The position numbers and the translations under genes are program-made. A stretch of DNA of 64,000 nucleotides, taken from the IMG/VR virus record IMGVR_UViG_2636416135_000002; one strand, written 5' to 3'. The DNA is from an uncultured virus (IMG/VR IMGVR_UViG_2636416135_000002). Its lineage: Duplodnaviria; Heunggongvirae; Uroviricota; Caudoviricetes. Below the pieces are notes generated by a model. It saw only the letters and a program-made list of their open reading frames with translations, searched no databases and was not told the origin of the DNA. Shown in pieces: positions 26,417 through 48,817 of this stretch (positions are counted from its first letter, which is position 1; each line of letters opens with the position of its first letter).

Positions 26417-26470
26417 GAGATTGTCCTTTCTACAAAACAGGCAGCAGAGAAATCCCTGCCGCCTGCCGTG

Positions 26471-26656: not shown

Positions 26657-26721
26657 AGATGGTCTCCTTTTGTCGAAAGATGTGCTGGCGGCAGCAGAAC
26701 CACCGCCAGCAGGTTGATAGA

Positions 26722-26910: not shown

Positions 26911-26925
26911 AGTTTGTCACCTCCA

Positions 26926-27498
26926 TTAATCAAGGAAATCATCATCGTCATCAGTTGCAAAGTCAGATTCAGCAGAAGCCTTACCACCAAGAGGCTCACC
27001 ATCACGAATCTTCTGCAGATTATTAAGACCGCAGGCGATGCCCTTATTACCAGAGCTGTTGAAAGCGTAGAAGCTGATGCTGGCGCGACCGTAGACTCCA
27101 GAGTAAACCTCAGAACGAGTAAGGATAGGATTGCGGTCTGCATCCACGATGCCCGGAGCAGAAGTGGCGTTGGCATTTACAAAGTAGCTGCCAGCGTAAG
27201 CAGGGTCATCCGGTCTTTCAAGGTCGCCATCACGAAGAGGAGTCTTAAGTACGGAAAGAGCTGGTACGGACTTGCCGTTGCCCTTGAGCTTGGATTCACC
27301 TTCACGATATGCAGCCTCGATAGCAGCTTCAATCTTTGCGACAGTCTTTGTGTCGGACTTCGGGATAATCAGGCTGACACTGTATTTCGGAGTGCCACCA
27401 TTGATGGATTTCGGTTCCCAGACGTTGGCGTAGCTCCAGCGTGTGTTAGGACCGGTGATAACTTTCATGGGATTTGTCATTTTTGCATTTTTACTCAT
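26926..27498 (-). CDS. Phage ssDNA-binding protein (DUF2815)
   Basis: RWSYANVWEP, PLRDGD, VYSGVYGRA, acidic tail DDDDDFLD. Confidence 0.88.
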   Translation of the reverse strand: MSKNAKMTNPMKVITGPNTRWSYANVWEPKSINGGTPKYSVSLIIPKSDTKTVAKIEAAIEAAYREGESKLKGNGKSVPALSVLKTPLRDGDLERPDDPAYAGSYFVNANATSAPGIVDADRNPILTRSEVYSGVYGRASISFYAFNSSGNKGIACGLNNLQKIRDGEPLGGKASAESDFATDDDDDFLD

Positions 27499-28630: not shown

Positions 28631-28631
28631 A

Positions 28632-28946
28632 TTAGAGCACCTCCGCTTCCCTGAGCAGGGCTTCATAATGTTTTGGGTCTACGAGTGACAACTTGCTTGC
28701 ACCGTACTTTTTAAGAAGTTCTCGAATTTCAGCTGTATGTCCGGCACGAGATTTATCCGCAAGAACAGCTCGAACTTCCTCAAGGGTCAGTGCAGGTTTT
28801 GCAGGAGCGGCAGGGTCTTCTGCTTTTTCAGCGGCTTCGGATGCTCCTCCAAACTGCTGTGCGAGCCAGTTTGCTGCATCGTTAATAGCAGTGGCAGCAT
28901 TTCTCAGCTCTTCGATGGTCATAGCCATATCGTTCATTTTTGACAT
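28632..28946 (-). CDS. Conserved phage hypothetical protein
   Basis: LTLEEVRAVLADKSRAG...YGASKLS. Confidence 0.75.
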   Translation of the reverse strand: MSKMNDMAMTIEELRNAATAINDAANWLAQQFGGASEAAEKAEDPAAPAKPALTLEEVRAVLADKSRAGHTAEIRELLKKYGASKLSLVDPKHYEALLREAEVL

Positions 28947-29100
28947 TTACTTTTCCTCCTTCCTCGGATTGTCTGTGTGCGGCGATGATTCTGAGATTCT
29001 TCGCCATTCTTGCGGATACCTGGCTGATTGCAGTGAGAGTAGCAATCACTTCTGCGTCCGTGCCGCTTCTGTTGTGAAAAGTTCGATTCACGATGTTCAC
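28882..29100 (-). CDS. Phage hypothetical protein
   Basis: 72 aa, LTAISQVSARMAKNL; GAAAGCGAG upstream. Confidence 0.5.
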   Translation of the reverse strand: MNIVNRTFHNRSGTDAEVIATLTAISQVSARMAKNLRIIAAHRQSEEGGKVNVKNERYGYDHRRAEKCCHCY

Positions 29101-29133
29101 CTCGCTTTCTGTAGGTCGCTTTGTTTCGCCTTA

Positions 29134-29175
29134 CACTACTCAATGGAGGTGAGATTGCCGTTTGGCCGAAAAAAT
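29134..29175 (-). promoter_or_regulatory. Repeated intergenic motif, copy 1 (candidate phage-sigma promoter)
   Basis: Minus strand TTTTTCGGCCAAACGGCAATCTCACCTCCATTGAGTAGTG at the head of the replication operon. Confidence 0.55.
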
Positions 29176-29190
29176 ATAAAAAAGTTTTTG

Positions 29191-29226
29191 AAAAGAAAAA
29201 TCGTCCCCTGAAAAATCAGAGGACGA
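29191..29226 (-). terminator. Intrinsic terminator after the sigma-like gene
   Basis: Minus strand TCGTCCTCTGA-TTTT-TCAGGGGACGA followed by TTTTTCTTTT. Confidence 0.7.
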
Positions 29227-29235
29227 CCATTCATA

Positions 29236-29754
29236 TTAGATGTAGTCCTTAAGCTCGGAGCGGAGCTTCTGGAACAGCTTGTCCCTGCGATAAACGAATG
29301 TATTACGAGAGAGGCCCATTTCCTTGCCGCAGTCACGTTCCGATTTTCCTTCCATAATAAGCTGGCAGATAAGACGAACTTCCGGATCCAGCTCGTTCAG
29401 CTTTGCGTAGAGGGCGTGAAGAAGCTCTGCGTCCTCCAACACTTCAGTGATAGCTGCAGATTCATCCGGAACATCGTCAAGCCAGCTCTTTTCGTTTCCG
29501 TCACCGTCACTAATGGTGTTGTCGAGAGAAAGCTGATCGCCAGCCTTAGCATAAGGACAAGTTAAACAATCCATGTCACATAAGTAGCGCTTGCTTGCAG
29601 GGCAGACACAGCGGCCATGCTCTTGCTGACGCTTACGGTAGGTGTTGATTTCACGGTAGTAGTTCGTGTAGAACTCCTTGTTGATATCCACCCAGCTTTT
29701 GGATTCTTTAATGTAGATACGATATTGTTTACTCTGATTTACGTTTTTTGACAT
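29236..29754 (-). CDS. Sigma-70 region-4 / ECF-like phage regulator with a Cys cluster
   Basis: CVCP...CDMDCLTC, LSLD, C-terminal HTH GKSERDCGKEMGLSRNTFVYRR. Confidence 0.8.
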   Translation of the reverse strand: MSKNVNQSKQYRIYIKESKSWVDINKEFYTNYYREINTYRKRQQEHGRCVCPASKRYLCDMDCLTCPYAKAGDQLSLDNTISDGDGNEKSWLDDVPDESAAITEVLEDAELLHALYAKLNELDPEVRLICQLIMEGKSERDCGKEMGLSRNTFVYRRDKLFQKLRSELKDYI

Positions 29755-30050: not shown

Positions 30051-30192
30051 TATTAAAGTGTGTATCTATATTCAGATGCGTTCTCCACTTCCTATGACTT
30101 AAGTATATAGGAAAGTGCATTTTTTACCGAACAACGCTGTACATGCTTATACACAGTTGTACACGCTTGATTCAAAATGGAGGTGTTTGGGA

Positions 30193-31350
30193 TTGGCAAA
30201 AACTGAATTCGAAGTGTTTGCTCAAAAAATAGCAACGTATTTTCAAGGAGACCTATCTCCAGAAGAATTTACGAGGACACTTTTTAAGAAAATTTATCTC
30301 AATCCCAATGGTGACACTCTGTTACATGACATGGAGCCTAGGACGCTGCGTGGTTATTTTTACAGAGAGCACAACATCACCACTTTGGCGAAGAAAATAA
30401 ATAAGGACTTGGACTCTCAGTATTTTGAAGAATTTATCGATACAGAGACGGACGATACTATTAAAGGTTTATGCGCGGCATTTGCCGATGAGTGTCCCGG
30501 AATCGACAACGAAAACTTCAAAAATAAAATTGCAGAGAGATTTAAAGAAATTATTTGTAATGCAGCAACAATAAAGCGCAAGCGTAAGAAAACAACAGAA
30601 CTTGTTCCTCAGTCTCAAGAAACAACAGTGGATGCAACAATTTCGCCATCTATCAAAGAGCAATATGGAGCTCTGCTTGTGGCGGAAGAACGCAGTGTTT
30701 GTCCGAATGATGGCTGCAGCACACCGTTATTTGTGAATGTAGGAGGACAGCTCGGAGCAAATTATGAAGTGACATTTATTGACCCATCTGTACCAGAAAC
30801 AAGAATGGAGAATTTAATTGCACTTTGTCCGGCTTGTCATAGCAAATACATCACAGGAAGAACAGATGAGCAGGTTCAGAGATTGTTACATATAAAAAAG
30901 AGCCTCGTAGATGACTACGAGGCGAAAGAGACTGTCTCTATGCAGAAGGTTGAAGATGGTATCCGCAAGGTGCTTGAGAAAATACCCAAAATGCAAGCAC
31001 CAGCAAATATTGATTTGAACTATAATCCTGTGACAATAAGACAGAAGATTGCCACAGATAATTTGATGCTTTATCTCAAGGCAAAGACGAATGTGAATGT
31101 ATATTACAGTGCAGTACAAGATGCATTCACTGAGTTGAACGCTGAAAGAATTCTTCGATATAAACCGTTTTGTCTTCAAGTCAGGATGACATATATGAAC
31201 TTGAGCGATATGGGATTGTCGCAGGATGAGATATTTGAAAAGATGGTTGATTGGTTACAAGATGCCACCCATGAGGATAGGAGCTCGTGTGAAGTGATAA
31301 TTTCTTACTTCATACAGAAATGTGAGGTGTTCGATGCTATTGCCGAATAA
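30193..31350 (+). CDS. ABC-three-component / Lamassu-like effector (HNH-like Zn domain plus C-terminal domain)
   Basis: CPNDGC...ENLIALCPACH; ends IISYFIQKCEVF; TTG start after GGAGGTG. Confidence 0.75.
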   Translation: MAKTEFEVFAQKIATYFQGDLSPEEFTRTLFKKIYLNPNGDTLLHDMEPRTLRGYFYREHNITTLAKKINKDLDSQYFEEFIDTETDDTIKGLCAAFADECPGIDNENFKNKIAERFKEIICNAATIKRKRKKTTELVPQSQETTVDATISPSIKEQYGALLVAEERSVCPNDGCSTPLFVNVGGQLGANYEVTFIDPSVPETRMENLIALCPACHSKYITGRTDEQVQRLLHIKKSLVDDYEAKETVSMQKVEDGIRKVLEKIPKMQAPANIDLNYNPVTIRQKIATDNLMLYLKAKTNVNVYYSAVQDAFTELNAERILRYKPFCLQVRMTYMNLSDMGLSQDEIFEKMVDWLQDATHEDRSSCEVIISYFIQKCEVFDAIAE

Positions 31351-31561
31351 GTTAATATCATACGACCAGAGCATCCTGCCTAAGTTCCCGGTTGTATTGA
31401 AAGAACTAAAAAACAGTCCTATGTCAGTGCATGACTTATACAAAAGAGTGATAAAGAAAATGTCTGGTGTTAGTGAGTTTATTGATACACTAGATTGTTT
31501 GTATGCACTTGGGAAAATAGAATTTGATGAAGAAGAGGAGGTGCTGCGCTATGTTGTATGA
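31334..31561 (+). CDS. ABC-three-component middle component (LmuC-like)
   Basis: 75 aa MLLPNKLISY...LDCLYALGKI, overlapping both neighbours. Confidence 0.75.
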   Translation: MLLPNKLISYDQSILPKFPVVLKELKNSPMSVHDLYKRVIKKMSGVSEFIDTLDCLYALGKIEFDEEEEVLRYVV

Positions 31562-33263
31562 AATTGAATGCGAAAAATTCGCTAAAAAAGTCAAAGGCCA
31601 GCTTGTTCCTCGTGGCCGTATCCAACTTCGTGAAGGTTTAAATACTGTGCTAGGTGATAAAGCTGCACAGAACTCAATTGGTAAGTCTACCTTCCTTCTT
31701 GTTGTTGACTTTTGCTTTGGTGGTGATGATTACATTAATCCTAAGATATGCAAAGCAAAAGAAAAACTGCACTCACATACTATTAACTTTGCTTTTAAAT
31801 TTGGGAATAAAATAGATTATTTTTGCAGAAGCACAAAAACGCCTTCTGAGATAGGTATCTGTGACTCGGAGTATAAAGTACAGCGAATACAAACTCTGAA
31901 AGAATTCAAGGATTACCTCTTGAAGGCGTATGATATAACAACTCCTTCAATCTCATTTAGAGAGATGGTAGGGCGCTTTCTGCGTATCTATGGTAGAGAG
32001 AATTATGCGGAAAGATACCCTTTGAAATACGGGGATGTTAAGCCAGAATCCGCAATAGAAACATTGGAGAAAATGTTCAATGTTTTTGCATTTATTGAAG
32101 AATACAAAAGTGTTTACGATGATAAGAGTAAACGCAGTAAGGTGCGAGATGATGCAACTAAACTTGGTGAGATGACAAATGTCGCAAGGACCAAGAAGGA
32201 ATATAACGCCAATGAAAAGGAAATCGAACGCCTTAGAACAGAATTACAAAAGTTGATGGACAGAGAGGATGCTAAATTATCCCAAGAAGAAACGGACAAT
32301 CTGGATAAAGCATCTGAGATTAGAGGCCAGCTGACAGTTCTGAAAAGAAGACGCAGTAGACTTGTATCGCAACTAAATGCTGTAAAAGCAAATATGTCGG
32401 GAGGTTTTGTTCCAGTTGAGGAAGATTTATCGGAGCTGTCCGAGTTCTTTCCTGATGTTGATGTCCAGAAGCTATCTCAAATAGAGCATTTTCATGACAA
32501 GATGCAGCACATCCTTTCTCAGGAAATGGGCGATGAGATAGCACAGCTTCAGATATTGATTGATGCTATTTCGGCTGAAATGGTAAGGCTTCAAGAATCG
32601 CAAAGGAAACTTGGAATACCGGTGACGATCTCTAAAAAATTTATGGATAGGGTGGTTGAGATTCAGCGTCAAATAGATATTTTAGTTGCAAAAAATAAAG
32701 GATATGACAAATCCGCCAAACTAAAAACAGAGAAAAAAGAAGCAAAAGTTCAACTTGAAGATGTCCGTGAAACACAGCTTCAGGCAGTTGAAACAAGTAT
32801 CAATCAGGAAATGACTCGTCTAAACGATTATATCTATAATGGTGAACGCTATGCGCCTACTATAAAATTTGGAAATTCTAGAAGTGGAAAGCCAACTTAT
32901 GAATTTTGGACTGAGGACGATACTGGAGCAGGCACAAACTTCAAGGGATTAATTATTTTTGACCTTGCACTCTTACGGCTCACGGAGCTACCAGTTATAG
33001 CACATGATTCTAATATTTTCAAAAATATTGCAGACTTGCCGATAGATAAAATCATGGAGCTATATAACCAGAGTGAAAAGCAGATTTTTATTGCATTTGA
33101 TAAAGAAGATACATTTTATGATGTGACACGTGACATTGTCCATTCGACTAAGGTTATTGAGCTTCATGAAAATGGAGGAGAACTATTTGGATGGTCATGG
33201 GCAAAGAAAGCAGCAAGAGAGAAACAAATTGCTACAGAAACTGGTGTGATTGAGGAGTCATAA
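31551..33263 (+). CDS. SMC-like ABC ATPase (DUF2326 / LmuB-like)
   Basis: GLNTVLG...NSIGKST Walker A, central coiled coil, FDLALL...IAHDS Walker B region. Confidence 0.82.
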   Translation: MLYEIECEKFAKKVKGQLVPRGRIQLREGLNTVLGDKAAQNSIGKSTFLLVVDFCFGGDDYINPKICKAKEKLHSHTINFAFKFGNKIDYFCRSTKTPSEIGICDSEYKVQRIQTLKEFKDYLLKAYDITTPSISFREMVGRFLRIYGRENYAERYPLKYGDVKPESAIETLEKMFNVFAFIEEYKSVYDDKSKRSKVRDDATKLGEMTNVARTKKEYNANEKEIERLRTELQKLMDREDAKLSQEETDNLDKASEIRGQLTVLKRRRSRLVSQLNAVKANMSGGFVPVEEDLSELSEFFPDVDVQKLSQIEHFHDKMQHILSQEMGDEIAQLQILIDAISAEMVRLQESQRKLGIPVTISKKFMDRVVEIQRQIDILVAKNKGYDKSAKLKTEKKEAKVQLEDVRETQLQAVETSINQEMTRLNDYIYNGERYAPTIKFGNSRSGKPTYEFWTEDDTGAGTNFKGLIIFDLALLRLTELPVIAHDSNIFKNIADLPIDKIMELYNQSEKQIFIAFDKEDTFYDVTRDIVHSTKVIELHENGGELFGWSWAKKAAREKQIATETGVIEES

Positions 33264-33527: not shown

Positions 33528-34157
33528 ATGGAGCAAAATAACAAAGTAGCCCTACAGGCAGCGAGCCCATATAATGCTGCCATAACAAGAGAACAATTTT
33601 TATTTTATGAAGTGCGAACTACTGCCAAGTTGCTCCATGAGGGATGCAGCTCAGAAGAAGTAGTAGAGCGTATTATTTCAGATAATTTATTTCAGTATCC
33701 GACAGAAAAGTCGGTGCGAAAGATGGCGCTTGCTTGCCTGAGAAGATTAGAGGCACTTGGTGATAATTCTTTAGTTGCAGCAATCGCAACGCAGCCATCC
33801 GATGTAGCAAAGCAGATATGTTTGTATGCCATGATGAAACAGTACCGCTTGATTTGGGATTTCATGATTACCGTCATCGGTGAGAAGTACAGATTATCGG
33901 ACACTACTTTCGGCAAGATAGACTTGAATAGCTATTTCCTGCGCTTGCAGGAGCAGGATGACTGGGTGGCCACATGGAGTGATTCTACGGTTACCAAGTT
34001 GAAACAGGTAATCGCAAAAATACTGGTGGAAAATGAATACATTGATAATATTAAATCTGTAAAGCTCAACCCGGTATGGCTCCAGCCTGTACTTGAGAAT
34101 GCAATCCGTGAAAATGGTGATGAGATTGCTCTTCCTGCATTCAATTGCTTTTCGTAA
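33528..34157 (+). CDS. brxA: BREX protein BrxA (DUF1819)
   Basis: DNLFQYPT and WSDSTVTKLKQ motifs; position before brxB and brxC. Confidence 0.88.
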   Translation: MEQNNKVALQAASPYNAAITREQFLFYEVRTTAKLLHEGCSSEEVVERIISDNLFQYPTEKSVRKMALACLRRLEALGDNSLVAAIATQPSDVAKQICLYAMMKQYRLIWDFMITVIGEKYRLSDTTFGKIDLNSYFLRLQEQDDWVATWSDSTVTKLKQVIAKILVENEYIDNIKSVKLNPVWLQPVLENAIRENGDEIALPAFNCFS

Positions 34158-34171
34158 GGAGGTAGGCCCAA

Positions 34172-34729
34172 GTGAGTGAATTGAAAGAAAGACTAGATAA
34201 CCTCAGAGCCTTAATGCAGGAGCCAGAGTTTCTTGAAGGCAAAGGTTTAAGCAATGAGGTAAATATACGAATCTTCTGTTATGACCCATCCGATGAGATG
34301 ATGGTCAGACATTTTATCGAGCAGATTATGACAGATCAGTCAATGAACTGTCACCTGATAGAACATAACTTATATGAAGTGTTTCTTTCTATCTGTGAAG
34401 ATAAGCGCATCGCAAAAACAATACCTGCGATGGAAGAGAAAAAAGGTAAAGAATTTATCCGAGACCAGATGAGCCGTATGGCTAATAATACAGCTTTTGT
34501 AAATAAGATGAAATATGAACCACATGAAGCTGGTGACGTACTTGTCATTACAGGAGTGGGAGATGCATTTCCGTTTATCAGAGTCCATGACCTGTTAAAT
34601 GCGATGCAGCCAGAATTTCCAGATGTTCCGATTCTGGTGTTCTATCCAGGCAATTATGATGGCCGTGATGTGCAGCTTTTCAATCGCCTGAAGAAAAATC
34701 CTTACTACCGAGCTTTCAATGTGATTTAA
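34172..34729 (+). CDS. brxB: BREX protein BrxB (DUF1788)
   Basis: GLSNEV, IFCYDP, ITGVG, FYPGNY, YYRAF. Confidence 0.9.
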   Translation: MSELKERLDNLRALMQEPEFLEGKGLSNEVNIRIFCYDPSDEMMVRHFIEQIMTDQSMNCHLIEHNLYEVFLSICEDKRIAKTIPAMEEKKGKEFIRDQMSRMANNTAFVNKMKYEPHEAGDVLVITGVGDAFPFIRVHDLLNAMQPEFPDVPILVFYPGNYDGRDVQLFNRLKKNPYYRAFNVI

Positions 34730-34741: not shown

Positions 34742-37700
34742 ATGGTTATTGAACAATTATTCCAAGAGGATATTAATCGTAAAATCAATGGCGTCGTTAA
34801 AGTAGACCAAGATGCTACTGATGTTCTTGTTCAGGAATTGGATGAGTATGTCATCACCAGAGATTTGAAGAAGCACTTCATTACTTTCTTTAATAACTAT
34901 GGAGAGTCCTTTCATGAAGGCACTGCAGATATTGGTGTTTGGATTTCCGGGTTCTTTGGAAGTGGTAAATCTCACTTCCTGAAAATGCTCTCCTACCTGC
35001 TTGCTAATCAGGAGGTACAGGGTGTTCGTACCGTAGAACGATTTCGTAAAAAATTTGAGGATGATCCGGCAACATTCATGTTGATTGATTCCGTTACTAA
35101 GGGTCATACGGATACTATCCTTTTCAATATCGATATTGAGGGTTCCATCAACAAGGACAAGACTGCTGTTCTTCGTGTTTTTGCAAAGATGTTCTATAAC
35201 TACCTTGGTTTTTATGGGGAGAATCTTAAGGTAGCAAAGCTGGAGCAGTTCATCGAAAAACGTGGAAAGACAGCAGAGTTCCGTCGTGTATTTGAGGAGA
35301 AAAATGGTGGCCCTTGGCTTGAGTCAAGAGATGCCTTCGCTTTCTTTGAAGACGATGTTGTTGATACATTGAAAGAGGTTCTCGGTATGAGCGAGGATGC
35401 TGCACGTAACTGGTTTAATGGAACCGAGACCGTAGAGACCAGCATCGCACAGCTTGTTTCTGAGATGAAAGATTATGTGGACAATAAACCGGATGACTTC
35501 CGTTTGCTATTTATGGTCGATGAGGTTGGCCAGTATGTAGGTGGCGATACAGACCTTCTTATTAACCTGCAGTCTCTTGTTGAGAAAATCGGCAGTGAGT
35601 GCGGCGGTAAGATTTGGGTTGTTTGTACCGGTCAGGAAGCTATCGATGAAATCATCAAGGCTCGTGAAAATGAGTTTTCTCGTATTCAGGCCCGTTTCAA
35701 GACCAGACTTTCGCTGACTTCTTCTTCCGCAGACGAAGTTATCCAGAAACGTATTTTGAAAAAAAAGCCTGAAGTGGAACCGGCATTGGAACAGATATAT
35801 AGCCAGAATGATTCCGTTCTTCGTAACCTGTTCAGCTTTACTGATGCAATGTTGGACATTAAGGGATATACCGGTCCGCAGGACTTTGCCAGAAACTTCC
35901 CGTTCGTACCTTACCAGTTCATTATCATGCAGAAGGTATTTGCTGAAATCCGTAAACATGGTAACTCTGGTAAACACCTTTCCGGTGGTGAACGTTCGAT
36001 GCTTTCCGGATTCCAAGAGGCAGCACAGAGGATTCAGGATAAGGACGAGTATGCACTGGCACCGTTCTATCTTTTCTACGATACCGTACATACATTCCTT
36101 GACAGTTCTATTCGTCGTGTTATTGAGCGTTGCCAGAAGGCAGCAGACAACGGTGATGGTATTGAACAGCAGGATGTGGACGTTTTAAAGCTCCTGTATC
36201 TTATCCGTTATGTCGATGATATTCCGGCAAACATTGATAACATTGTTATCCTTATGGCGGATGATATTCGTTTGGATAAGATTACGATGCGCGAAAAGGT
36301 ACGTGGCAGTCTCGACCGTCTGCTTAGTCAGAACTACATCGGAAGAACCGGTGACACTTATAATTTCCTGACTGATGAAGAACAGGATATTCAAAGAGAC
36401 ATTTACAAAAATACTCAGGTCGATACCTCTGCAATCGTGGAGCGTATTGGCCAGATGATTTTTGCTGATATTTATACAACAAAGAAATACCGTCACGGAA
36501 AGTACGATTTCCCATTTGATCAGATGGTAGACACAACAAGCATTGGTGCCGTAACCGGTGGTATGAGACTTCGCATCATGACGGTAGCAACAGACACTGT
36601 TGAGAAGAGTGAGCTTCGTCTTATGACAGAGTCTAAAAATCAGGCGATCGTTGTACTTGCTGAAACACCTTATTATGAGTCATTGGAAAAAGCAATGAAA
36701 GTGCGTAAATATGTAAAGCAGCGTAATGTAGCACAGCTACCGAAGTCCGTACAGGACATCATTCGAAATCATCAGGATGAGGCTAACAAGTACGAAGCAT
36801 CTGCAGAGGAAGATTTGAAGAAGGCAATCGTTGATGCAGAGTTCTATGTAGATGGAGAACGTATTGAAGTTAAGGGTGGAGATGCTAAGAGCAAGCTGGA
36901 TCAAGCGCTGGAATATTTAGTTACTCATGTTTATAGTGAACTTGGTCTTATTACAAAGAATGCGGATACAGACGCTGATATATTGGCAGTACTGCAGGGT
37001 GACCATCTGAATGGTGTTATGGCTGGTATGGAAGAAAACCATGACGCCGCAGTGAAAATGGAAGAATATTTGGAAATGCAGGACGCCAAAAAACTTCCTA
37101 CTTCTATGGCAGATGTACAGAGCCGCTATCAGGCGATTCCTTATGGCTGGAAGGAAATCGACATTGCGGTTGTGGCTGCGATGCTGATTTACGACTAGAA
37201 GGTCACGGTTAAGTACGGTGGCGAAACTATCCAGCCGGGTAATCCAAAACTTCCGGATATGCTTCGTAAGAAGAGTGAGATTGGCAGAACAAGCATCTCT
37301 AAGCGTCAGATCATTACGGCAACTAAGATGCGTGCCGTCAAAGAATTGCTGCGTGAATACTTCGATGTAATGGACGTACCGGATGATGAAGACGGGCTAG
37401 TTGGATATATTGTTGAGAAGTTTGAAGAACAGAAGTCTCATTATGAGAAGCTGAATGAACGTTATGAGGGTCATAAATATCCTGACCATCACCTTGTGAC
37501 AAAAGCTCTCAGCCTAATGGAAAGTGTACTTTCTCAGCGCAAGGATAATACAGCTCTGATTGACAGACTTCTGAAGGAGGAAGACAGCCTCCTTGATAAT
37601 AAGGATGACATGCAGAGCGTTGAAGGTTTCTTCAAGAATCAGGTGCAGGTGTTCGATGCAGCAGTTCGTATGGAAGCAGAGCTGAGAAACGACCTCTCTT

Positions 37701-38296
37701 ATCTTCAGAAGGAAGAGGAGGCAAATCAGGCACTGAATCAGATTCGTAAGATTACCGTAGTGGATGCCGGACAGAGTAGCGTTTACAGACGTATCCCTGA
37801 GTTGAACGGATTGATGGATACTGTTCGTGAGGGCCACGGAAGGCTTCTCGAAGCAAAGCGAGCAGAGATTCTTGAAATCATCCGTCAGTGCTTGTCAGAA
37901 ATCCATACTCTTGCCGGTGATGTTTATGATGCCAGAGCAATATCTGAGCGTGCTGATAAATTCTTTGATCAGCAGAAGACAAGAGTGGCAGAGCTGGAAA
38001 GCCTGCAGCTTCTTGATGGTCTGGTACCTCAGATGTGGGGATATAAGGATGACACAGTCGATAAAATCGATGGTATCGTTCATCCAAAGACTCCAGTTAC
38101 ACCAACCGTCAAACCGAAAGAAGGTGGAGCAGTAACTCCTCCAGCTCCAAAGAAGGTTATCAAAAATGTATACCGTCAGGCGGCATTCCCTTCTAAGACT
38201 CTTGAGAGTCAGGAAGATATCGATGCCTACGTTGAAAGAATGAGAGCATACCTCACTGCAATGATGAAGGATTGCGACGGAATCAAATTAAGCTAA
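34742..38296 (+). pseudogene. brxC: BREX ATPase BrxC split by an in-frame TAG at 37196-37198
   Basis: WISGFFGSGKSH Walker A and VDEVGQY Walker B; frame continues Y-D-stop-K-V-T-V-K-Y-G-G into the 37259 ORF. Confidence 0.85.
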
Positions 38297-38306: not shown

Positions 38307-39779
38307 ATGAACAAGAATGCGATAAAAAAATTCGCCACAGAGGCTCGCCGAGAGTTAATCTCCCGTGTGAGCCAGAGGGCGTTGAAATACGGTATTTCCG
38401 ATAAAGAAATCGGAAATCCAAATGACGATAGCGTCAATGGGCATTTGCTTTCTTCTACCGAGAAGAAGCAGAGAGCTGCCTTGATTGCGCAGATTAAAGA
38501 AAAAGGATATGAGCAGGTTATGGAGGAGGTTGCCTACACATGGTTTAACCGTTTCTCCGCACTGCGATTCATGGAGGTCAATGGATATCTCCCTAGTAGA
38601 GTGCGTGTTTTCACAGATGAAAACAATGCATTTAAGCCTCAGATTCTTACTGAGGCAATTCACATGGAGCTGGATGGACTCGATATGGAGAAAGTCTATG
38701 CCTATAAGGAAGCCAATGACAATGATGAATTGTATAAGTATCTTCTGATTACCCAGTGCAATGCACTCAATAGCGTGCTTCCGGGTATGTTCCAGAAGAT
38801 TGCAGACTACACCGAGCTTTTGTTTCCTGACAACCTTCTTCGTGAAGGTAGTGTTGTTCAGCAGATGATTGAACTGATACCGGAGGAAGATTGGAAGGAT
38901 GCCGTTCAGATTATTGGATGGTTGTATCAATACTATAATATTGAACAAAATGAACTTGTATATGATGGCACTATGTCAAAGAGCAGGCTTCCGAAGGAAT
39001 TGATTCCTGCAGCAACAACAATATTTACTCCAGATTGGGCCGTCAGGTACATGGTAGAAAACTCTTTGGGGCATATTTGGTTGGAAGGGCACCCAGATGA
39101 TGAACTGAAATCTCAGTGGAAGTATTATCTGGAAGAGGCAAAGCAGGAGTCAGTTGTTCAGGATCAGCTTGCGTCCATTCGTGAAGAGTATAAAGCTCTG
39201 AAACCAGAAGATATTCTGTGCATCGACCCTTGCTCCGGCAGCGGCCACATTTTGGCCTATATGTTTGATGTGCTCGTTCAGATTTATGAGGCTTATGGTG
39301 TTGATACCAGAACTGCAGTTGCAAGTATCGTAGAAAACAACATCTATGGATTGGATATCGATGACCGTGCAGCACAGCTGGCATACTTCTCCGTTATGAT
39401 GAAAGCCTGCCAGTACGATAAGAGATTCTTTCGTCGTAAGGTTCAACCGCATGTTTACGCCATTGCAGAAAGTAACTATGTGGACCAGTATGCAGTGGAA
39501 TACTTCTGTAATAGTGATGTAAAGCTAAAGACAGCAATGGATACCATTATTGCAGAGCTTCATGATGCAAAGGAATATGGTTCTATCCTTACAATTAGCC
39601 AGCAAGATTGGAATACTCTCTATGCTCGTTTTGATGAGATTAAGAATGAGAGTGTGATGTCGATTTATTCAGAAGCAGCATTAAAGTTAAAAAATATGGT
39701 CGAAGTTGCTGAAGTTTTGTCGAAAAAATACCATGTTGTTTCCACTAATGAGCGTGAATTATTAGGACTAAGTGATTAA
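38307..39779 (+). pseudogene. pglX: BREX methyltransferase PglX, 5' part, truncated at motif IV
   Basis: EEVAYTWFNR, IIGWLYQYY, FTPDWAVRYMVENSLG, DPCSGSGHIL; ends KYHVVSTN-ERELLGLSD-stop where NPPY is expected. Confidence 0.9.
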
Positions 39780-39847
39780 AACCTTGATTTTATCAGCTTT
39801 TTTAGACATTAGAGGAGAAAACAAAATGAATAACAGAGTAAAATAAT

Positions 39848-39963
39848 GGCTCTTCACTTTAGAAATTAAAGATGAGGAGCTGTTTTTATATCCAACTAAA
39901 TAAATAATGATACATAGAGCGTTTGCTTATCTGATTTTAGATTTGTGAACGCTCTATTTTTTT
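39848..39963 (+). terminator. Two tandem terminator-like hairpins at the ICE left end
   Basis: GCTCTTCA...TGAGGAGC plus T run; ATAGAGCGTT...AACGCTCTAT plus T run. Confidence 0.6.
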
Positions 39964-39990: not shown

Positions 39991-40908
39991 GTGAATGAAA
40001 TGGGTGGAACAAAATATAAGCATTTCTATGGTAATCAGAGTGAGCAGTTCACATTCTATAAAGTTCCGAAGCAGTTGTTTGTAGACGAAGAGTTTCACAA
40101 TGTTTCAGCTGAAGCAAAGCTGCTGTATGGGATATTGCTTGATCGTATGAGCTTATCTTCTGCAAATGGTTGGCTTGATGAAGATGGAAAGGTATATATC
40201 ATCTTTACGATTGAAGAAATTAAAGCCAGCTTAGGTTGTGCAAGCAAGAAAGCAGTAAATCTATTAAATGAGCTTGAAAACAAATGTGGTTTAATCGACA
40301 GGATACGACAAGGACTTGGAAAACCGAATATTATTTATGTGAAGAACTTCTTGACTTGTGATGTGGATAACTATGTGGAAAGACAAATCTTGAATTGTCA
40401 AAATGACAATTCTGGTGATGTCAAAAGTACAATTCAAGAATGGTCAAAATCAAAATGTAATAATACTGATATAAATAAGACTGATATTAGTTATACTGAT
40501 CCTTCTTTCTTTCCGGAAAATCCCGAAAGGAAAGACGAAGCGAGCGATTATTACACGCAATCTTTAATCGGTCTTAAAGAAAAATTGGATTATGATAGCT
40601 TAGCAATAAGCTATAGACTTCACATCGGTATGCTTGATGAAATCTTTGAAATCTTGAACGATACCCTTACAAGCAGCTGCAAGATGATCCGAATCGGCAA
40701 AGATGATAAACCGGCAGAGTTGGTAAAAAGCAAATTAAGGAAGTTGGATTACAGTCATATCCAGTTTGTTATGGAATGTATGTTAGAGAATACGAGTAAG
40801 GTGCGTAACATCAGGCAATATCTGCTTACGACTTTGTATAACGCAACTCATACCATGGACAGCTATTACACGAGTTTAGTGAATCACGATATGTATGGTG
40901 ATTATTAA
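39991..40908 (+). CDS. repA: Replication initiator, RepA_N plus DUF6017-like C-terminus
   Basis: FYKVPKQLF, AKLLYGILLDRMSLS, RQGLGKPNIIYVK, NIRQYLLTTLYNA. Confidence 0.88.
   Translation: MNEMGGTKYKHFYGNQSEQFTFYKVPKQLFVDEEFHNVSAEAKLLYGILLDRMSLSSANGWLDEDGKVYIIFTIEEIKASLGCASKKAVNLLNELENKCGLIDRIRQGLGKPNIIYVKNFLTCDVDNYVERQILNCQNDNSGDVKSTIQEWSKSKCNNTDINKTDISYTDPSFFPENPERKDEASDYYTQSLIGLKEKLDYDSLAISYRLHIGMLDEIFEILNDTLTSSCKMIRIGKDDKPAELVKSKLRKLDYSHIQFVMECMLENTSKVRNIRQYLLTTLYNATHTMDSYYTSLVNHDMYGDY
40362..40456. other. Candidate oriV inside repA
   Basis: Perfect DnaA box (TGTGGATAA, 40362-70); GTCAAAA repeats at 40397, 40420 and 40443; inverted repeat at 40392-40412. Confidence 0.6.
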
Positions 40909-40928
40909 AACGAAAGGAGCGTGAACGA

Positions 40929-41756
40929 ATGAAAAACAATCCGACAGTGATCGCAGTAGTCAATCAAAAAGGTGGAACGGGAAAAACGACTACTTGCGAA
41001 AATCTAGGGATAGGAATTGCCTTAGAAGGTAAAAAAGTGCTGCTTATTGACACTGATCCGCAGGCAAGTTTAACAATCAGTTTGGGCTTTCCTAATCCTG
41101 ATGATTTATATCCTACGCTTTCAGACCTGCTGACGAAAGTGATTGAGGAGGAAACAATCACGCCAAAAGAAGGCGTTATTCATCACAAAGAAGGTGTGGA
41201 TTTGATACCGGCGAATATTGAGTTATCCGGTCTTGAGGTATCGATAGTAAATGCAATGAGCCGAGAAAAGATATTGAAGCAGTATGTAGATTCAGTAAAA
41301 AAAGAATACGACTATGTGTTGCTTGATTGTATGCCAAGCTTAGGTATGCTGACGATCAATGCCCTTGCGGCAGCTGATAATGTCTTGATTCCGGTACAGG
41401 CACAGTATCTTCCGGCAAAAGGTTTGGAGCAGCTGCTTCAGACAATCAATAAAGTCAGACGGCAGATCAATCCCAAATTAAGAATTGAGGGAGTGCTTTT
41501 GACGATGGTAGACAGCAGAACCAACTATGGAAAAGACATCAGCACATTGATTAGGGAAACCTATGGGGATAAACTAAAAGTTTTCAAGACGGATATTCCT
41601 CGTTCGGTTCGTGCAGAAGAAATCAGTGCAGAGGGAAAAAGCATATTTTCGCACGATCCCAAAGGAAAAGTATCGGAAGCCTATAAGATACTGACAAAGG
41701 AGGTGTTGAAAGATGGCGAAAAAAGGCGTAAACATCAGCTTGAAGGGGTACGATGA
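40929..41756 (+). CDS. parA: ParA/Soj ATPase
   Basis: NQKGGTGKTTT, DTDPQASLT, DCMPSLG. Confidence 0.95.
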   Translation: MKNNPTVIAVVNQKGGTGKTTTCENLGIGIALEGKKVLLIDTDPQASLTISLGFPNPDDLYPTLSDLLTKVIEEETITPKEGVIHHKEGVDLIPANIELSGLEVSIVNAMSREKILKQYVDSVKKEYDYVLLDCMPSLGMLTINALAAADNVLIPVQAQYLPAKGLEQLLQTINKVRRQINPKLRIEGVLLTMVDSRTNYGKDISTLIRETYGDKLKVFKTDIPRSVRAEEISAEGKSIFSHDPKGKVSEAYKILTKEVLKDGEKRRKHQLEGVR

Positions 41757-42639
41757 TATTTTCTCAACAGAAGAAACCCGTACCGATGAGAAGCTGGAAA
41801 AGGTGCAGAATATTCCTTTATCAGAGCTTCACCCATTCAAGAACCACCCGTTCAAAGTCATTGATGATGAATCTATGTTACGAACCGTAGAAAGCGTAGC
41901 ACAATATGGAGTGCTTGCACCGGCAATCGCACGACCAAGAGAGGAAGGTGGCTATGAGCTGATTTCCGGTCATAGACGACACCATGCTTCAGAATTAGCA
42001 GGCAGAGAAACTATGCCAGTTATCGTCAGAAATCTTGATGATGACGCTGCAACGATTTTGATGGTAGATTCCAATCTGCAAAGAGAAACGATACTGCCAA
42101 GCGAAAGAGCTTTTGCCTACAAGATGAAGTTAGAAGCGATAAAACATCAAGGAGCAAGAAGTGATTTAACTTCGTGCCAACTTGGCACGAAGTTGCGAAC
42201 AGATGAAATGCTGGCAAAAGATAGCGGAGATAGTGCCAGACAAGTTCAACGATATATTCGATTGACGGAGCTGATACCGGAGCTTCTATCTATGGTCGAT
42301 GAAAAGAAAATATCATTCAATCCTGCTGTGGAGCTTTCGTATCTGACGAAAGAAGAACAACAGGATTTTTTAGAAGCCATGGATATGGAGCAGAACACTC
42401 CGTCCTTGTCCCAAGCTCAGCGATTGAAGAAGCTCAGCCAAGAAGGAAACTGCACATTGGAAGCAATGGCAGAAATCATGGCAGAAGTAAAGAAAGATGA
42501 GCTTGATAAGGTTACGATCAAAAATGATGTGCTGAAGAAATATTTCCCGAAGTCCTATACGCCAAAACAAATGCAAGATATTATCATCAAGCTTTTGGAA
42601 GGCTGGCATAAAAAACGAACAAGAGATATGGAGAGGTAG
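41713..42639 (+). CDS. parB: ParB/Spo0J-family protein
   Basis: YELISGHRR, DSNLQRE, HTH SARQVQRYIRL. Confidence 0.93.
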   Translation: MAKKGVNISLKGYDDIFSTEETRTDEKLEKVQNIPLSELHPFKNHPFKVIDDESMLRTVESVAQYGVLAPAIARPREEGGYELISGHRRHHASELAGRETMPVIVRNLDDDAATILMVDSNLQRETILPSERAFAYKMKLEAIKHQGARSDLTSCQLGTKLRTDEMLAKDSGDSARQVQRYIRLTELIPELLSMVDEKKISFNPAVELSYLTKEEQQDFLEAMDMEQNTPSLSQAQRLKKLSQEGNCTLEAMAEIMAEVKKDELDKVTIKNDVLKKYFPKSYTPKQMQDIIIKLLEGWHKKRTRDMER

Positions 42640-44229: not shown

Positions 44230-44709
44230 ATGCAGGAAGAAGTTGAAAACAGGGCGTTCAATCTCGCTATCAGCACTTCCAAGCTGACTGCACGAACATT
44301 AGCAAGAGCCTTTCAGATGTATCTAAGACATCGAAGGGAGCAGAAGTTTCAAAAAGGTGCAAAGACCAATATTGAGAAGAAATCCGTTGCGAGCCTATTG
44401 AAGGACAGCAAAAAGCTGATGAACATGGAAATATCGGAAACGGATATAGCCGGATTTGAAAAATATGCCAAGAAGTATCGTGTTGATTATGAAATCAAGA
44501 TGGACGATAGCGTAACGCCACCGAAGTATCTTGTGTTCTTTAAGGCTGATGACGGAAAGGATATGACGAAAGCGTTCAAAGCATATTTGGCTTCTGTCAT
44601 GCAGAAAGAAAAGAAGCCAAGCGTATTGAAGCAGTTGTCGAAATTTAAGGAAAAAGTGAGAGCTATGCCGAAAAAGGATCGCAATAAGGATAAGGAGCAT
44701 AGCCTATGA
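44230..44709 (+). CDS. PcfB-family (DUF3801) protein
   Basis: MQEEVENR, AKKYRVDY, YLVFFKA, KPSVLKQL. Confidence 0.85.
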   Translation: MQEEVENRAFNLAISTSKLTARTLARAFQMYLRHRREQKFQKGAKTNIEKKSVASLLKDSKKLMNMEISETDIAGFEKYAKKYRVDYEIKMDDSVTPPKYLVFFKADDGKDMTKAFKAYLASVMQKEKKPSVLKQLSKFKEKVRAMPKKDRNKDKEHSL

Positions 44710-46472
44710 AGATGACAAAGAATGAACTGAAAAGGTTAATTATTTTAAATATCCCATATCTTGTCATCGGACTTGTGGCAACGAATATCGGAGAAGCATG
44801 GCGATTGGCAACCGGGATTGATTCATCTGAAAAGTTACTGTCGTTTATCACGACGCTTGGAACAGCGTTTCAAAATCCATTACCGTCGCTTAATCCGTTG
44901 GATTTATTGATTGGTTTATGTGTTGGTGCGGCAATCAGAACAGCAGTCTATCTTAAAGGCAAAAATGCCAAGAAGTTTCGTCATAAGGTGGAATATGGTT
45001 CTGCAAGATGGGGTACAGCAAAAGACATCGAGCCATTTGTTGCTCCAGACTTTAAGGACAATATCATATTGACCAAGACGGAAAAACTGATGATGAGTAA
45101 CCGACCGAAAGAGCCGAAGAATGCCAGAAACAAGAATGTGCTGATTGTAGGTGGTTCCGGTTCCGGCAAGACAAGATTTTGGATCAAGCCGAATCTTTTG
45201 CAGATGCATTCAAGTTATGTTGTTACTGATCCAAAAGGAAGTATCGTCATCGAGTGCGGCAATGCCCTTTTGAAGAACCACTATAAGATTAAAATTTTCA
45301 ATACGATCAATTTCAAGAAGTCTATGCACTACAATCCCTTTGCCTATATCCATTCTGAAAAGGATATTTTGAAGCTCGTAACGACGCTGATTACCAACAC
45401 AAAAGGAGATGGCAAAGCCGGTGATGAATTTTGGACGAAAGCGGAAACGCTTCTTTACTGTGCTTTGATCGGATATATCCATTATGAAGCACCGATTGAG
45501 GAACAGAACTTCTCTACTTTGATTGAATTTATCAATGCGATGGAAGTAAGAGAAGATGATGAGGATTTTCAAAATCCTGTGGATCTGATGTTTGAAGCAT
45601 TGGAAAAAGCAAACCCGAACCACTTTGCAGTAAGGCAGTATAAAAAATTCAAATTAGCCGCTGGCAAGACTTCAAAATCGATCCTTATTTCATGCGGAGC
45701 AAGGCTTGCACCGTTTGACATTGAAGAACTTAGAGAGATAACTGCTTATGATGAACTGGAACTAGATACCCTTGGAGATAGGAAAACAGCATTGTTTTTG
45801 ATTATGTCCGATACTGACGGAACCTTTAACTTTCTGATTTCCATGATCTATACGCAGCTTTTCAATCTGCTGTGCGAAAAAGCTGATGATGTGTATGGCG
45901 GAAGACTTCCTGTTCATGTGAGGTGCTTGATTGATGAAGCTGCTAACATCGGTCAGATACCCAATTTGGAAAAATTAGTAGCAACGATCCGAAGTCGTGA
46001 AATTTCAGCCTGCTTGGTACTTCAGGCACAGTCGCAGCTGAAGGCAATCTATAAAGACAATGCTGACACGATTATCGGAAATATGGATTCAAGAATATTC
46101 CTAGGCGGAGCTGAGCCGACAACACTAAAGGAACTTAACCAAGCTCTGGGCAAGGAAACGATCGACACCTACAACACATCGGATACCAGAGGAAACAGTC
46201 CGTCATACGGAACAAATTATCAAAAGCTCGGCAAGGATCTGATGACGGTTGATGAGCTGTCGGTACTGGACGGTTCCAAGTGTATTTTGCAGCTTAGGGG
46301 CGTCAGACCGTTTCTATCGGATAAGTATGATCTGACGCAGCACCCGAACTACAAGCTCACATCGGACTACGACAAGAAGAACACATTTGATATCGAGAAG
46401 TTCTTGAACCGAAAACTAAAACTGAATCAAGATGATGTCTATGAAGTCATAGAGATCGATAAAGAAACCTAA
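44706..46472 (+). CDS. virD4: VirD4/TraG-like type IV coupling protein
   Basis: EYGSARWG, GGSGSGKTRF, VTDPKG, LIDEAANIG. Confidence 0.95.
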   Translation: MKMTKNELKRLIILNIPYLVIGLVATNIGEAWRLATGIDSSEKLLSFITTLGTAFQNPLPSLNPLDLLIGLCVGAAIRTAVYLKGKNAKKFRHKVEYGSARWGTAKDIEPFVAPDFKDNIILTKTEKLMMSNRPKEPKNARNKNVLIVGGSGSGKTRFWIKPNLLQMHSSYVVTDPKGSIVIECGNALLKNHYKIKIFNTINFKKSMHYNPFAYIHSEKDILKLVTTLITNTKGDGKAGDEFWTKAETLLYCALIGYIHYEAPIEEQNFSTLIEFINAMEVREDDEDFQNPVDLMFEALEKANPNHFAVRQYKKFKLAAGKTSKSILISCGARLAPFDIEELREITAYDELELDTLGDRKTALFLIMSDTDGTFNFLISMIYTQLFNLLCEKADDVYGGRLPVHVRCLIDEAANIGQIPNLEKLVATIRSREISACLVLQAQSQLKAIYKDNADTIIGNMDSRIFLGGAEPTTLKELNQALGKETIDTYNTSDTRGNSPSYGTNYQKLGKDLMTVDELSVLDGSKCILQLRGVRPFLSDKYDLTQHPNYKLTSDYDKKNTFDIEKFLNRKLKLNQDDVYEVIEIDKET

Positions 46473-46636
46473 ATCTATCCTCTGCCGGTGCAGAAAAACG
46501 ATAGGTTTATTTTTATGCCTGAATGCTCTGCACAGGACAAGCTGACATGGCAAATGAAGTGAAAAGAAAGGTCGAAAGGTGCAGGCATAGGCGAACACAC
46601 AAAAAACAAAAGTTAAAAATATGGAGGAAATGAATC

Positions 46637-46849
46637 ATGGAATTTTTTAACAGTGCAGTAGATGTATTACAGACTTTGGTAGTGGCTCTTGGAGCAGGAC
46701 TTGGCGTATGGGGAGCAATCAACTTGCTTGAAGGCTACGGTAACGACAATCCGGGTGCGAAATCGCAGGGAATGAAGCAGCTTATGGCTGGTGGCGGAGT
46801 TGCTCTTATCGGTATCACTCTTATTCCGCTTCTTTCTGGATTGTTCTAA
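46637..46849 (+). CDS. Maff2-family membrane protein
   Basis: LEGYGNDNPGAKSQGMKQLMAGGG. Confidence 0.9.
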   Translation: MEFFNSAVDVLQTLVVALGAGLGVWGAINLLEGYGNDNPGAKSQGMKQLMAGGGVALIGITLIPLLSGLF

Positions 46850-46867
46850 GAGATGGAGGGCTAGCAT

Positions 46868-47734
46868 TTGGAAGGCATACTCGAACAGATAACCAATTGG
46901 TTGAAGGAAATGCTCGTTGGCGGCATTATGGATAATCTGTCGGGGATGTTTGATTCTGTCAACCAGCAGGTTGGCGAAATTGCGGTAGAAGTGGGAATGA
47001 CTCCGGAAGTTTTTTCACCCGGAGTCTTTTCCATGATTCGTAATGTATCCGAATCAGTCATTATCCCGATTGCAGGATTGATTTTGACTTTTATCGCCTG
47101 TTACGAGCTGATACAGATGATTATCGATCACAATAATCTCAACAATTTTGAAACATGGATCTTTTTCAAGTGGATCTTCAAGACCTTTGTTGCTGTCATG
47201 CTGATAACCAACACTTTCAATATCACGATGGCTGTCTTTGATATAGCAAATCATGTGATAGAAGCAAGCGGAGGCATTATTTCCGGCGATACAGCGATAG
47301 ATCCGGGAATGCTGGACGCTCTTGAAGAAACGCTGATGGAAATGGATGTCGGACCGCTTCTTGGTCTGTTCCTTCAGTCGCTGATCGTGCAGATTACGAT
47401 GTCGGTGCTGTCGATTGTGATTTTTATCATCGTCTATGGAAGAATGATTGAGATCTATTTAATGACGAGCTTGGCTCCTATTCCGTTATCGACATTCGGA
47501 AACAGAGAACAAAGCCAAGTCGGACAGAACTATCTGAGGTCGCTGTTTGCATTAGGTTTTCAAGGCTTCTTGATCATGATATGCGTCGGTATCTATGCGG
47601 TACTGATCAGTGAGCTGGCATTAAGCGATGACATCATCATGTCGATATGGGGAATCATGGGTTACACCATTCTGCTTTGCTTTACGCTGTTCAAGACAGG
47701 AAGCTTGGCAAAGAGCGTATTCAATGCCCATTAA
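46868..47734 (+). CDS. VirB6-like conjugal transfer membrane protein
   Basis: Multi-pass; YGRMIEIYL...APIPL, NYLRSLFALGFQGFLI. Confidence 0.88.
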   Translation: MEGILEQITNWLKEMLVGGIMDNLSGMFDSVNQQVGEIAVEVGMTPEVFSPGVFSMIRNVSESVIIPIAGLILTFIACYELIQMIIDHNNLNNFETWIFFKWIFKTFVAVMLITNTFNITMAVFDIANHVIEASGGIISGDTAIDPGMLDALEETLMEMDVGPLLGLFLQSLIVQITMSVLSIVIFIIVYGRMIEIYLMTSLAPIPLSTFGNREQSQVGQNYLRSLFALGFQGFLIMICVGIYAVLISELALSDDIIMSIWGIMGYTILLCFTLFKTGSLAKSVFNAH

Positions 47735-47745
47735 GGAGGTCGCAG

Positions 47746-48306
47746 ATGAAGAAATACAATGTAATCTATGTCGATCCCCCTTGGAGCTATCGTGTATGGA
47801 GCGACAAAGGAAAAGGACGCTCTGCGGAAAGCCATTATTCGACGATGAGTATTGAGGATATCAAGAAGCTGCCCATAGGAAAACTGGCAGATAAGGATTG
47901 TGCTTTGTTTATGTGGATCACATTCCCTTTGCTTGAAGAAATGGGCGAAGTATTGAAGGCTTGGGGATTCAAATACAAGACGGTGGCTTTCGTATGGATC
48001 AAGCAGAACAAGAAATCGGATTCTTTGTTCTGGGGAATGGGTTATTGGACAAGAGCCAATGCAGAGATCTGTATCTTGGCGACAAAAGGAAGTCCGAAAC
48101 GATGTTCCAAAGGGATTCATCAAGTCATCGTTTCCCATATTGAAAGGCACAGCAAAAAACCGGAAGAAGCAAGAAAGCGTATAGAGAAGCTGATGGGCGA
48201 TGTTCCTAAGATTGAACTGTTTGCAAGAGAAAAAGCAGAGGATTGGGATACTTGGGGAAATGAAGCACCTGATGGCATATCTATACCGGAATTGGAGGTG
48301 GTCTAA
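47746..48306 (+). CDS. MT-A70-family adenine methyltransferase
   Basis: YVDPPW, GMGYWTRANAE, HSKKP, IELFAR; ATG 47746 after AAGGAGG. Confidence 0.9.
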   Translation: MKKYNVIYVDPPWSYRVWSDKGKGRSAESHYSTMSIEDIKKLPIGKLADKDCALFMWITFPLLEEMGEVLKAWGFKYKTVAFVWIKQNKKSDSLFWGMGYWTRANAEICILATKGSPKRCSKGIHQVIVSHIERHSKKPEEARKRIEKLMGDVPKIELFAREKAEDWDTWGNEAPDGISIPELEVV

Positions 48307-48756
48307 ATGGCAGCGTATGTACCGGTTCCTCGTGATCTGACACGAGTGAAATCGAAGATATTTTTTAATTTGACGAAAAGGCAGCTGCTTTGTTTTGGTG
48401 CAGCGGCACTGATTGGCTTGCCGGTATTCTTTCTGCTACGAATGAGTGGCAATGTGAGCTTGGCAGTCATCGGCATGATGATCGTCATGCTTCCGCTGTT
48501 CTTTCTTGCAATGTATGAAAAAGACGGACAGCCGCTTGAAGTCATAGCGAAGCATTTTATCGAAAGCAGATTTATTCGTCCGAAGGAAAGACCTTATAGG
48601 ACGGACAACTATTATGCGGCATTGATGAGGCAGTGCCAGCTAGAGAAGGAGGTAGAGGCGATTATTTTCAATTCTCAAAAAGAAAAAATCGGCAGACATC
48701 AATCTGCCAAGCAATCTGACAAAAAAACAAGAAAAAGAAATCAGGAAGCTGATTGA
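48307..48756 (+). CDS. PrgI-family protein
   Basis: VPVPRDL...LTKRQLLCF, two hydrophobic helices. Confidence 0.9.
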   Translation: MAAYVPVPRDLTRVKSKIFFNLTKRQLLCFGAAALIGLPVFFLLRMSGNVSLAVIGMMIVMLPLFFLAMYEKDGQPLEVIAKHFIESRFIRPKERPYRTDNYYAALMRQCQLEKEVEAIIFNSQKEKIGRHQSAKQSDKKTRKRNQEAD

Positions 48757-48817
48757 AAATGCCAAGAGATATGACGGGATTCCAAGAACTGCACAGCAGT
48801 CGATTCCTTTTCAGAGA

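Follow-up and report, generated by a model that had tools for sequence, protein, structure and literature searches.

A BREX cluster contains a pglX gene that breaks off within the codons of its catalytic motif IV, and the DNA that follows is of another kind. The gene lies in a stretch of 64,000 nucleotides from an uncultured virus, called here the window. What broke the gene, and why at that codon? Is BREX the object of the insertion, or does motif IV attract it wherever the motif occurs?

The break in pglX and the allele without it

The 5' part of pglX occupies 38307..39749 on the plus strand, as delimited by an NCBIfam model and by alignment to the empty allele: 481 codons, of which the last encodes the Asn of motif IV. 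The truncated open reading frame (38307-39779, 490 aa) reads KYHVVSTN, with AAT at 39747-39749, continues as ERELLGLSD and stops, and the NCBIfam model BREX_1_MTaseX is matched over profile positions 1-514 of 1210. A first-pass annotation had described a PglX that is normal to KYHVVSTN and then turns to foreign residues and a stop. Translation confirms this, as do the other pglX loci: NPPY continues in all 81 whose alignment reaches the site (11 of the 92 loci fell short). The region 451-490 of the truncated PglX, used as a protein query, found no match, and the 3' half of pglX, sought within the 64-kb window, is absent.

What the site looked like before it was broken can be read from genomes with an empty site, a comparison to which the annotation had pointed. 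One uninterrupted pglX locus, L081, is the same as window 28307-39749 (11,443 bp) save for 3 substitutions. After AAT it goes on with CCT CCA TAT TTG GGT (NPPYLG), giving a PglX of 1,159 aa, then pglZ, brxL and an Mrr-like gene. The whole record that carries the empty allele (G006, 67.8 kb) matches window 1-39749 at 99.975%, and the match ends exactly there. The element therefore sits exactly between the N and the P of PglX motif IV, and 39749/39750 is most likely the left junction (attL) of an ICE with a Tn1549-type conjugation module.

PglX must be inactive after the insertion, which cuts through the catalytic motif and takes away about 680 residues. Y511A alone, in motif IV of BrxX, is described as abolishing both BREX defence and methylation (10.1101/2024.04.12.589305), a precedent that adds to the case for the annotation's view that the insertion disables BREX.

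PglX is not the only casualty. The type 1 order brxA-brxB-brxC-pglX-pglZ-brxL is complete in L081, and the window has brxA and brxB (33528..34729, plus strand, by Pfam), a split brxC (34742..38296, plus strand) and the 5' part of pglX. The frames into which brxC is split, of 818 aa and 345 aa, are separated by TAG at 37196-37198, as against CAG in L081, and T>C at 37196 is seen in runs X1, X16 and X19. Recoding of TAG was considered as the source of this stop and rejected: read with code 11, the genes of the prophage are long, and copies nearly identical to this one have CAG. BrxC is needed for BREX methylation (10.1101/2024.04.12.589305). The prophage-linked BREX of the window is now decaying.

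The prophage in question (tail, capsid, portal, terminase and a DNA polymerase A module) covers approximately 1..29754 on the minus strand, by Pfam; G006 carries it too, classed there as a provirus. ABC-three-component-like genes, for a CTD11 protein and a DUF2326 protein, follow at 30115..33263 on the plus strand (Pfam). In a Johnsonella contig these phage genes again stand next to BREX, and the cluster is probably cargo at the prophage end. The unit of prophage, ABC-three-component genes and BREX recurs near-identically elsewhere, whole in G006 and as the brxC-pglX stretch in runs whose labels are bovine gut and two coded organisms; these copies, and BREX relatives at 87-93% in contigs of Veillonella, Johnsonella and Hominimerdicola, suggest recent horizontal spread. 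In Hominimerdicola (L004:1707-2797) a 170-bp segment similar to the end of the prophage recombinase gene is fused straight to the ABC-three-component region, as if the phage body had been deleted and the defence cargo retained. The prophage in the window also contains a pair of 44-bp repeats, at 15392-15435 and 16404-16446.

The element beyond the junction and its sister

The annotation had also seen AT-rich DNA, hairpins and repA beyond the junction, and these are there. GC drops from 0.44-0.46 in the two kb before to 0.36-0.39 over 39001-41000, and an inverted repeat with 19-nt arms, evident in the sequence at 39914..39957, stands upstream of repA, which starts at 40000. The repeat is kept with base changes in the sister element described below; in the alignment one A-T pair has become G-C by a double change, and one G-C pair has become G-T. 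Possibly it is a replication or regulatory site; a promoter and terminator scan called no terminator-like or promoter-like site at the repeat.

What lies beyond, all of it on the plus strand, is the body of a conjugative element. repA (RepA_N), parA and parB extend over 40000..42639 (Pfam). The conjugation module at 44706..52812 encodes VirD4 (CD1115 family), a VirB6-like protein, an MT-A70 methyltransferase, PrgI, VirB4 (CD1110 family) and a CD1108/NlpC-P60 protein (Pfam and NCBIfam). DNA topoisomerase III follows at 56419..58482 (Pfam and NCBIfam), and at 59881..64000 is the open reading frame of a large helicase-methyltransferase of the element's own, which runs past the window end and has its own motif IV, GNVPF, with the Asn codon at 62947. 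The VirD4-like protein and VirB4 score 567 and 1108 against NCBIfam cut-offs of 250 and 325, and I take the CD1115 and CD1110 models to be markers of the Tn1549 family. A relaxase of the PF03432 type also marks that family; one is found in the sister, and the corresponding position lies beyond the window. As in the Tn1549 family as described (PMC4701971), in which ParA is a feature and RepA_N a frequent one, the window has both by Pfam. VirB4 is called at 758 aa, compared with 809 aa in a 98%-identical relative: the frame is open upstream (48662-48818) and lacks a common start codon at the corresponding position, which points to a start-codon variant or minor decay. In plasmids, the only matches to the element were short ones to repA, and searches of viral_contigs with the left end, the right end and RepA gave no relatives.

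The other end of such an element can be seen in a sister. When the left end plus repA (the first 1.2 kb) was used as query against 401 genomes of one family, a single genome, G177, matched from query base 1. Its element, of 51,162 bp, splits hsdM at FDLVLTN|PPF; three large serine recombinases (Resolvase, Recombinase and Zn-ribbon domains) stand beside the right junction, and beyond that junction the remainder of HsdM resumes with PPFGTKKGG. The frames of the conjugation module are colinear in the two elements, with identities of 90% for VirD4, 91% for VirB4 and 64% for RepA. The element end, sought in 401 genomes of G177's order and 3 genus-level genomes, was met in G177 itself only; end-like matches in G356, G074 and G313 were dropped, as they consist of 26-40 bp of AT-rich DNA and leave the junction uncovered. 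The cargo of the sister (G177:C12:49828-61960) is defence-like, with an SNF2 helicase, an N6/N4 methylase and ResIII in a row, and the four genes after ResIII resemble by eye what I presume to be a KAP-NTPase/QueC/TatD (Qat-type) set.

When the ends of the sister are joined, they form a 48-bp site that is symmetric about AA and has perfect 10-bp distal arms, TTAGTCCTAA and TTAGGACTAA, a layout that fits the usual attP of large serine integrases. AAT is present at both junctions, and joining the target halves in silico gives an unbroken HsdM of 472 aa. Precise excision is geometrically possible. Transferred to the window, the symmetry centre and the AAT at both sister junctions place the putative crossover dinucleotide at 39747..39748 (plus strand), the AA that begins the Asn codon. 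The element half of attL, at 39749..39771 (plus strand), is shared with the left end of the sister; it encodes the tail ERELLGL and ends with the distal arm TTAGGACTAA at 39762-39771, of which the sister has a perfect inverted copy at its right end. Because the window carries this same arm, I infer that the same integrase module, a serine-integrase triplet, and the right end of the element lie past base 64000.

Targets of the element

If the element recognizes pglX, other copies should lie in pglX; if it recognizes motif IV, they may lie in any gene with that motif. A metagenome scan for the element end decides the matter: all 6 copies found follow the in-frame motif-IV Asn of an adenine methyltransferase. 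Three are in hsdM (FDVILMN, ADYIMAN and ADFIMAN), one in a ResIII-Eco57I type IIG-like enzyme (FNAIVGN) whose intact relative reads NPPYQ, and two in helicase-methyltransferases of ICEs (L142 and L147; FDAVIGN and FDVAIGN) whose intact relatives read GNVPF or GNIPF. Three of the 6 elements are 92% identical to that in the window over 1.2-1.5 kb. On the target side the search pattern required nothing beyond AAY, and AA occurs as a dinucleotide 11,334 times in the window alone.

Protein searches extend the list. A second split PglX, P0125, is 45% identical to that of the window and ends VVTN|ECELLGLIA; it occurs on 24 contigs, and over 475 residues it matches a full-length Thomasclavelia ramosa PglX at 100% identity. 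P0135 is the C-terminal half of the same PglX, starting at M479, and P0208 and P0224 are integrases 98% identical to those of G177. P0135, P0208 and P0224 are each listed with a longest contig of 184,345 bases, which suggests one contig carrying both pglX halves and the triplet. In viral_contigs, P0125 found only 2 distant PglX loci. A profile search with the element tail returned mostly full-length methyltransferases, and 3 of the 124 stored proteins match the tail pattern: P0001, which is new and is a third helicase-methyltransferase, and P0002 and P0121, the targets of L144 and L147. P0124 was recognized by eye.

In all there are 10 distinct targets, every one of them split at the motif-IV Asn: 4 hsdM, 3 ICE helicase-methyltransferases, 2 pglX and 1 type IIG-like gene. 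Of these, 7 were found without bias towards methyltransferases; the protein searches, designed around methyltransferase ends, are poor at finding targets of other kinds. The empty allele, the sister and the metagenome copies all agree with the earlier proposal that motif-IV codons serve as the attachment site. That the element is directed at BREX is not supported: with pglX making up 2 of the 10 targets, the target is the motif, not BREX.

How might such a site be read? The left arms of the targets share an invariant A at -14 from the D/N/H codon and T in the second positions of hydrophobic codons, a weak pattern. A matrix made from them, with each site left out in turn, ranks the true sites in the top 0.1-3.9% of 10,939 AA sites, the pglX site of the window scoring worst (top 3.9%). 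The left arm achieves no more than this, and therefore the right arm must add specificity. G006 has a second motif-IV site (G006:C1:63552), FNAVLMNPPY in a gene of 608 aa, with a left-arm score above that of the pglX site that was used.

Nor is the preference for motif IV common to all relatives of these recombinases. Integrases were surveyed in 399 scored genomes (2 more went unscored), of which 57 matched; 30 loci were examined, one of them G177 itself. Just 1 of the other 29 had a methyltransferase downstream, several of the loci being inner triplet members or cut short by a contig edge. The locus closest to the G177 triplet, at 54% identity, has a similar end and no methyltransferase downstream. 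Apart from L166, described below, the remaining loci lie in other genes, are inner triplet members or abut a contig edge; L152, L156, L160, L167, L171, L173 and L174 have downstream what I take by eye to be fragments of an AbrB/SpoVT-type regulator, an amidase, an HTH protein, spoIVB, a polysaccharide deacetylase and an M23 peptidase. Phages gave only 3 short integrase matches. The annotation had looked to related recombinases for a preference for methyltransferase motifs: copies with the same end show it in 6 of 6 cases, but distant triplets sit in unrelated genes, and motif-IV targeting is not a property of every triplet.

I propose that the window contains the left end of a multi-target ICE whose serine integrases use the codon pattern of a catalytic motif as a degenerate attB, a reading I regard as very probably correct. 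A triplet of serine recombinases would recombine the 48-bp symmetric attP with a degenerate chromosomal site, namely the motif-IV codons of N6-adenine DNA methyltransferases, roughly (F/Y)D-x-hydrophobic-hydrophobic-x-N-(P/V)-P-(Y/F), crossing over at the AA of the Asn codon. Protein function preserves the motif-IV codon pattern, and landing sites should therefore exist in almost any Firmicute, whether in BREX pglX, in type I hsdM, in a type IIG-like enzyme or in another ICE's helicase-methyltransferase gene. On insertion the catalytic motif would be split and the enzyme killed; excision would rebuild the gene. Enzymes with DPPY or DPPW have no AA core and would be spared, among them the product of the element's own MT-A70 gene (DPPW at 47773). 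The element's own helicase-methyltransferase, in contrast, scores like a target on the left-arm matrix, so nesting of one element within another is predicted.

The host would be expected to survive the loss of a restriction or BREX methyltransferase, because every restriction or BREX target seen has its methyltransferase built into the machine that attacks. Type I and type IIG enzymes need their methyltransferase part to cut. When BrxX or its motif-IV tyrosine is lost, defence and methylation are reported to disappear without toxicity (10.1101/2024.04.12.589305). On both grounds the observed targets should be safe to break.

Rival readings and known systems

Could the junction be an artefact of assembly, or a rearrangement without specificity? 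None of the 4 runs compared bridges 39749/39750. The best share of junction words in any indexed run is 0.43, and the runs with a partial share hold the empty allele or fragments; contigs stop at 39749 in 3 of the 4 runs, one of them leading to the empty allele. Against an artefact, the break falls on the very base at which the element ends at 7 other DNA loci, and on the same codon in unrelated genes. Since the exact truncated protein is found on 8 contigs (from several sources, some perhaps the same data; one contig is 213,529 bases long) and the same element end in unrelated genomes, the junction is not a one-off assembly error, and a chimera is scarcely credible. Another suggestion is a regulated switch of the kind that A118 provides at comK, in which the element excises on cue and BREX is restored. 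Ambroset et al. raise the idea for rumA, hsdM and mutT (PMC4701971), the crossover keeps both the Asn codon and the frame, and the truncated 818-aa BrxC is on 5 contigs as against 8 for the split PglX, a weak hint of carriers with an intact brxC. In the window, though, excision alone would leave BrxC split, because its brxC has TAG where the empty allele and three runs have CAG; moreover, the targets are not specific to BREX, and no circle, excised form or excision product was seen. What stands of the reversible switch put forward in the annotation is the geometry, as rebuilt in silico for the hsdM of the sister; that it regulates BREX is improbable.

A different matter is whether the choice of motif IV is itself adaptive, selected because it disables m6A-based host defence and the protective methyltransferases of rival ICEs, the element bringing methylation and defence cargo of its own. 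Defence methyltransferases make up 7 of the 10 distinct targets, the cargo of G177 described above would fit, and two integrase lineages only about 25-41% identical use different motifs of the same gene class. Against this, integration follows entry, and by that reasoning the incoming DNA would be unprotected; 3 of the 10 targets are ICE genes; distant triplets sit in unrelated genes, with a methyltransferase downstream at 1 of 29 loci besides the sister, several of these loci being inner or cut short; and a large survey did not find the targets of serine recombinases enriched within or close to anti-phage genes (PMC10083194). Motifs that are conserved, abundant and dispensable explain the pattern with no benefit from defeating defence. 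Selection of this kind is possible but rather doubtful. It is in an equally tentative spirit that I extend the multi-target reading to a hitherto undescribed ICE lineage whose motif-IV-reading triplet makes integration a general means of countering defence (type I, type IIG, BREX and rival ICEs), and which came to this gene class independently of the Tn1806 lineage with its use of the SAM-binding motif I.

Whatever its purpose, the mechanism would offer gut Firmicutes a route to lose BREX and restriction systems in one step, and would let one integrase lineage find sites in almost any host by reading a conserved enzyme motif rather than a gene. Annotation of defence systems would count the split loci as BREX or restriction-modification although they are dead. 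The tail N-E(R/C)ELLGL is a simple marker by which further cases can be found.

Genes split by serine-integrase elements are familiar. The skin element interrupts sigK, its one target, and its excision is regulated. A118 in comK likewise makes a precise and potentially reversible interruption of a coding sequence, with one target and regulated excision (PMC4701971). The window family differs from both in having many targets, and BREX here carries a second lesion. Rearrangement of pglX itself, which the annotation took as precedent, turns out to be a different process: the published cases are programmed inversions of BREX-1 pglX, in which an adjacent invertase swaps the middle, specificity-bearing region (PMC9881135). 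The same BREX gene is rearranged, but by an ICE in the window, of about 50 kb judging from its sister, and in the catalytic motif. The literature searched, outside which lie several primary papers and supplements, has no report of an ICE in pglX and none that names motif IV as an ICE site.

The nearest parallel is found in streptococci. Ambroset et al. (PMC4701971) describe Tn1549-family ICEs with integrase triplets in hsdM. The Tn1806-like ICEs (Tn1806, ICESpy10750/10750-RD.2, ICESan95_hsdM and ICESag167) join a conjugation module of the Tn1549 family to a serine-integrase triplet (PMC4701971, PMC12942858, PMC13006639) and, according to two articles of 2026, insert at a GG/GGGG repeat within methyltransferase genes of the hsdM, Eco57I-type and snf2 kinds (PMC12942858, PMC13006639). 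The word "motif" is absent from the main texts of those two articles. The sister resembles these elements in its three serine integrases at one end, its very short direct repeat and its disrupted target, and the targets of both groups include hsdM, Eco57I-type methyltransferases and the methyltransferase-SNF2 gene of other ICEs. Insertion in methyltransferase genes is thus a shared feature, but here it occurs at motif IV. pglX is not among the targets encountered in published descriptions of Tn1806-like ICEs, and the hosts here are gut Clostridia and Erysipelotrichia.

I compared two streptococcal records, CP138365.1 and CP044103.1, on which the comparison rests; the former is taken to be ICESag167 from its strain name, erm(B) and snf2. 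In both, the target resumes with E-G-T-G-(N/G)-F, which is motif I, and the core is GG. Tn1806-like records thus cross at motif I, with the GG core expected from the published GG/GGGG repeat, whereas in the window family the crossover lies at the AA within the motif-IV Asn codon; AAT is at both sister junctions and at that of the window. A distant clostridial triplet from the survey (L166; G1078:C1, near 879,700) behaves like the streptococcal group: it lies in hsdM with a GG core, and its target resumes at G-T-G/A-x-F, again motif I. Integrases of the Tn1806 group are described as more than 70% identical among themselves, and the sister triplet falls below this, its long alignments with the triplets of the two records giving about 25-41% identity and two short N-terminal pieces about 50%. 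The element in the window works like a Tn1806-like ICE but departs from that group in integrase identity and core repeat; its specificity is distinct. Two distant lineages of triplet integrases, one using motif I and the other motif IV of a single gene class, are a natural pair, useful for asking how serine integrases read degenerate sites and why three of them are kept.
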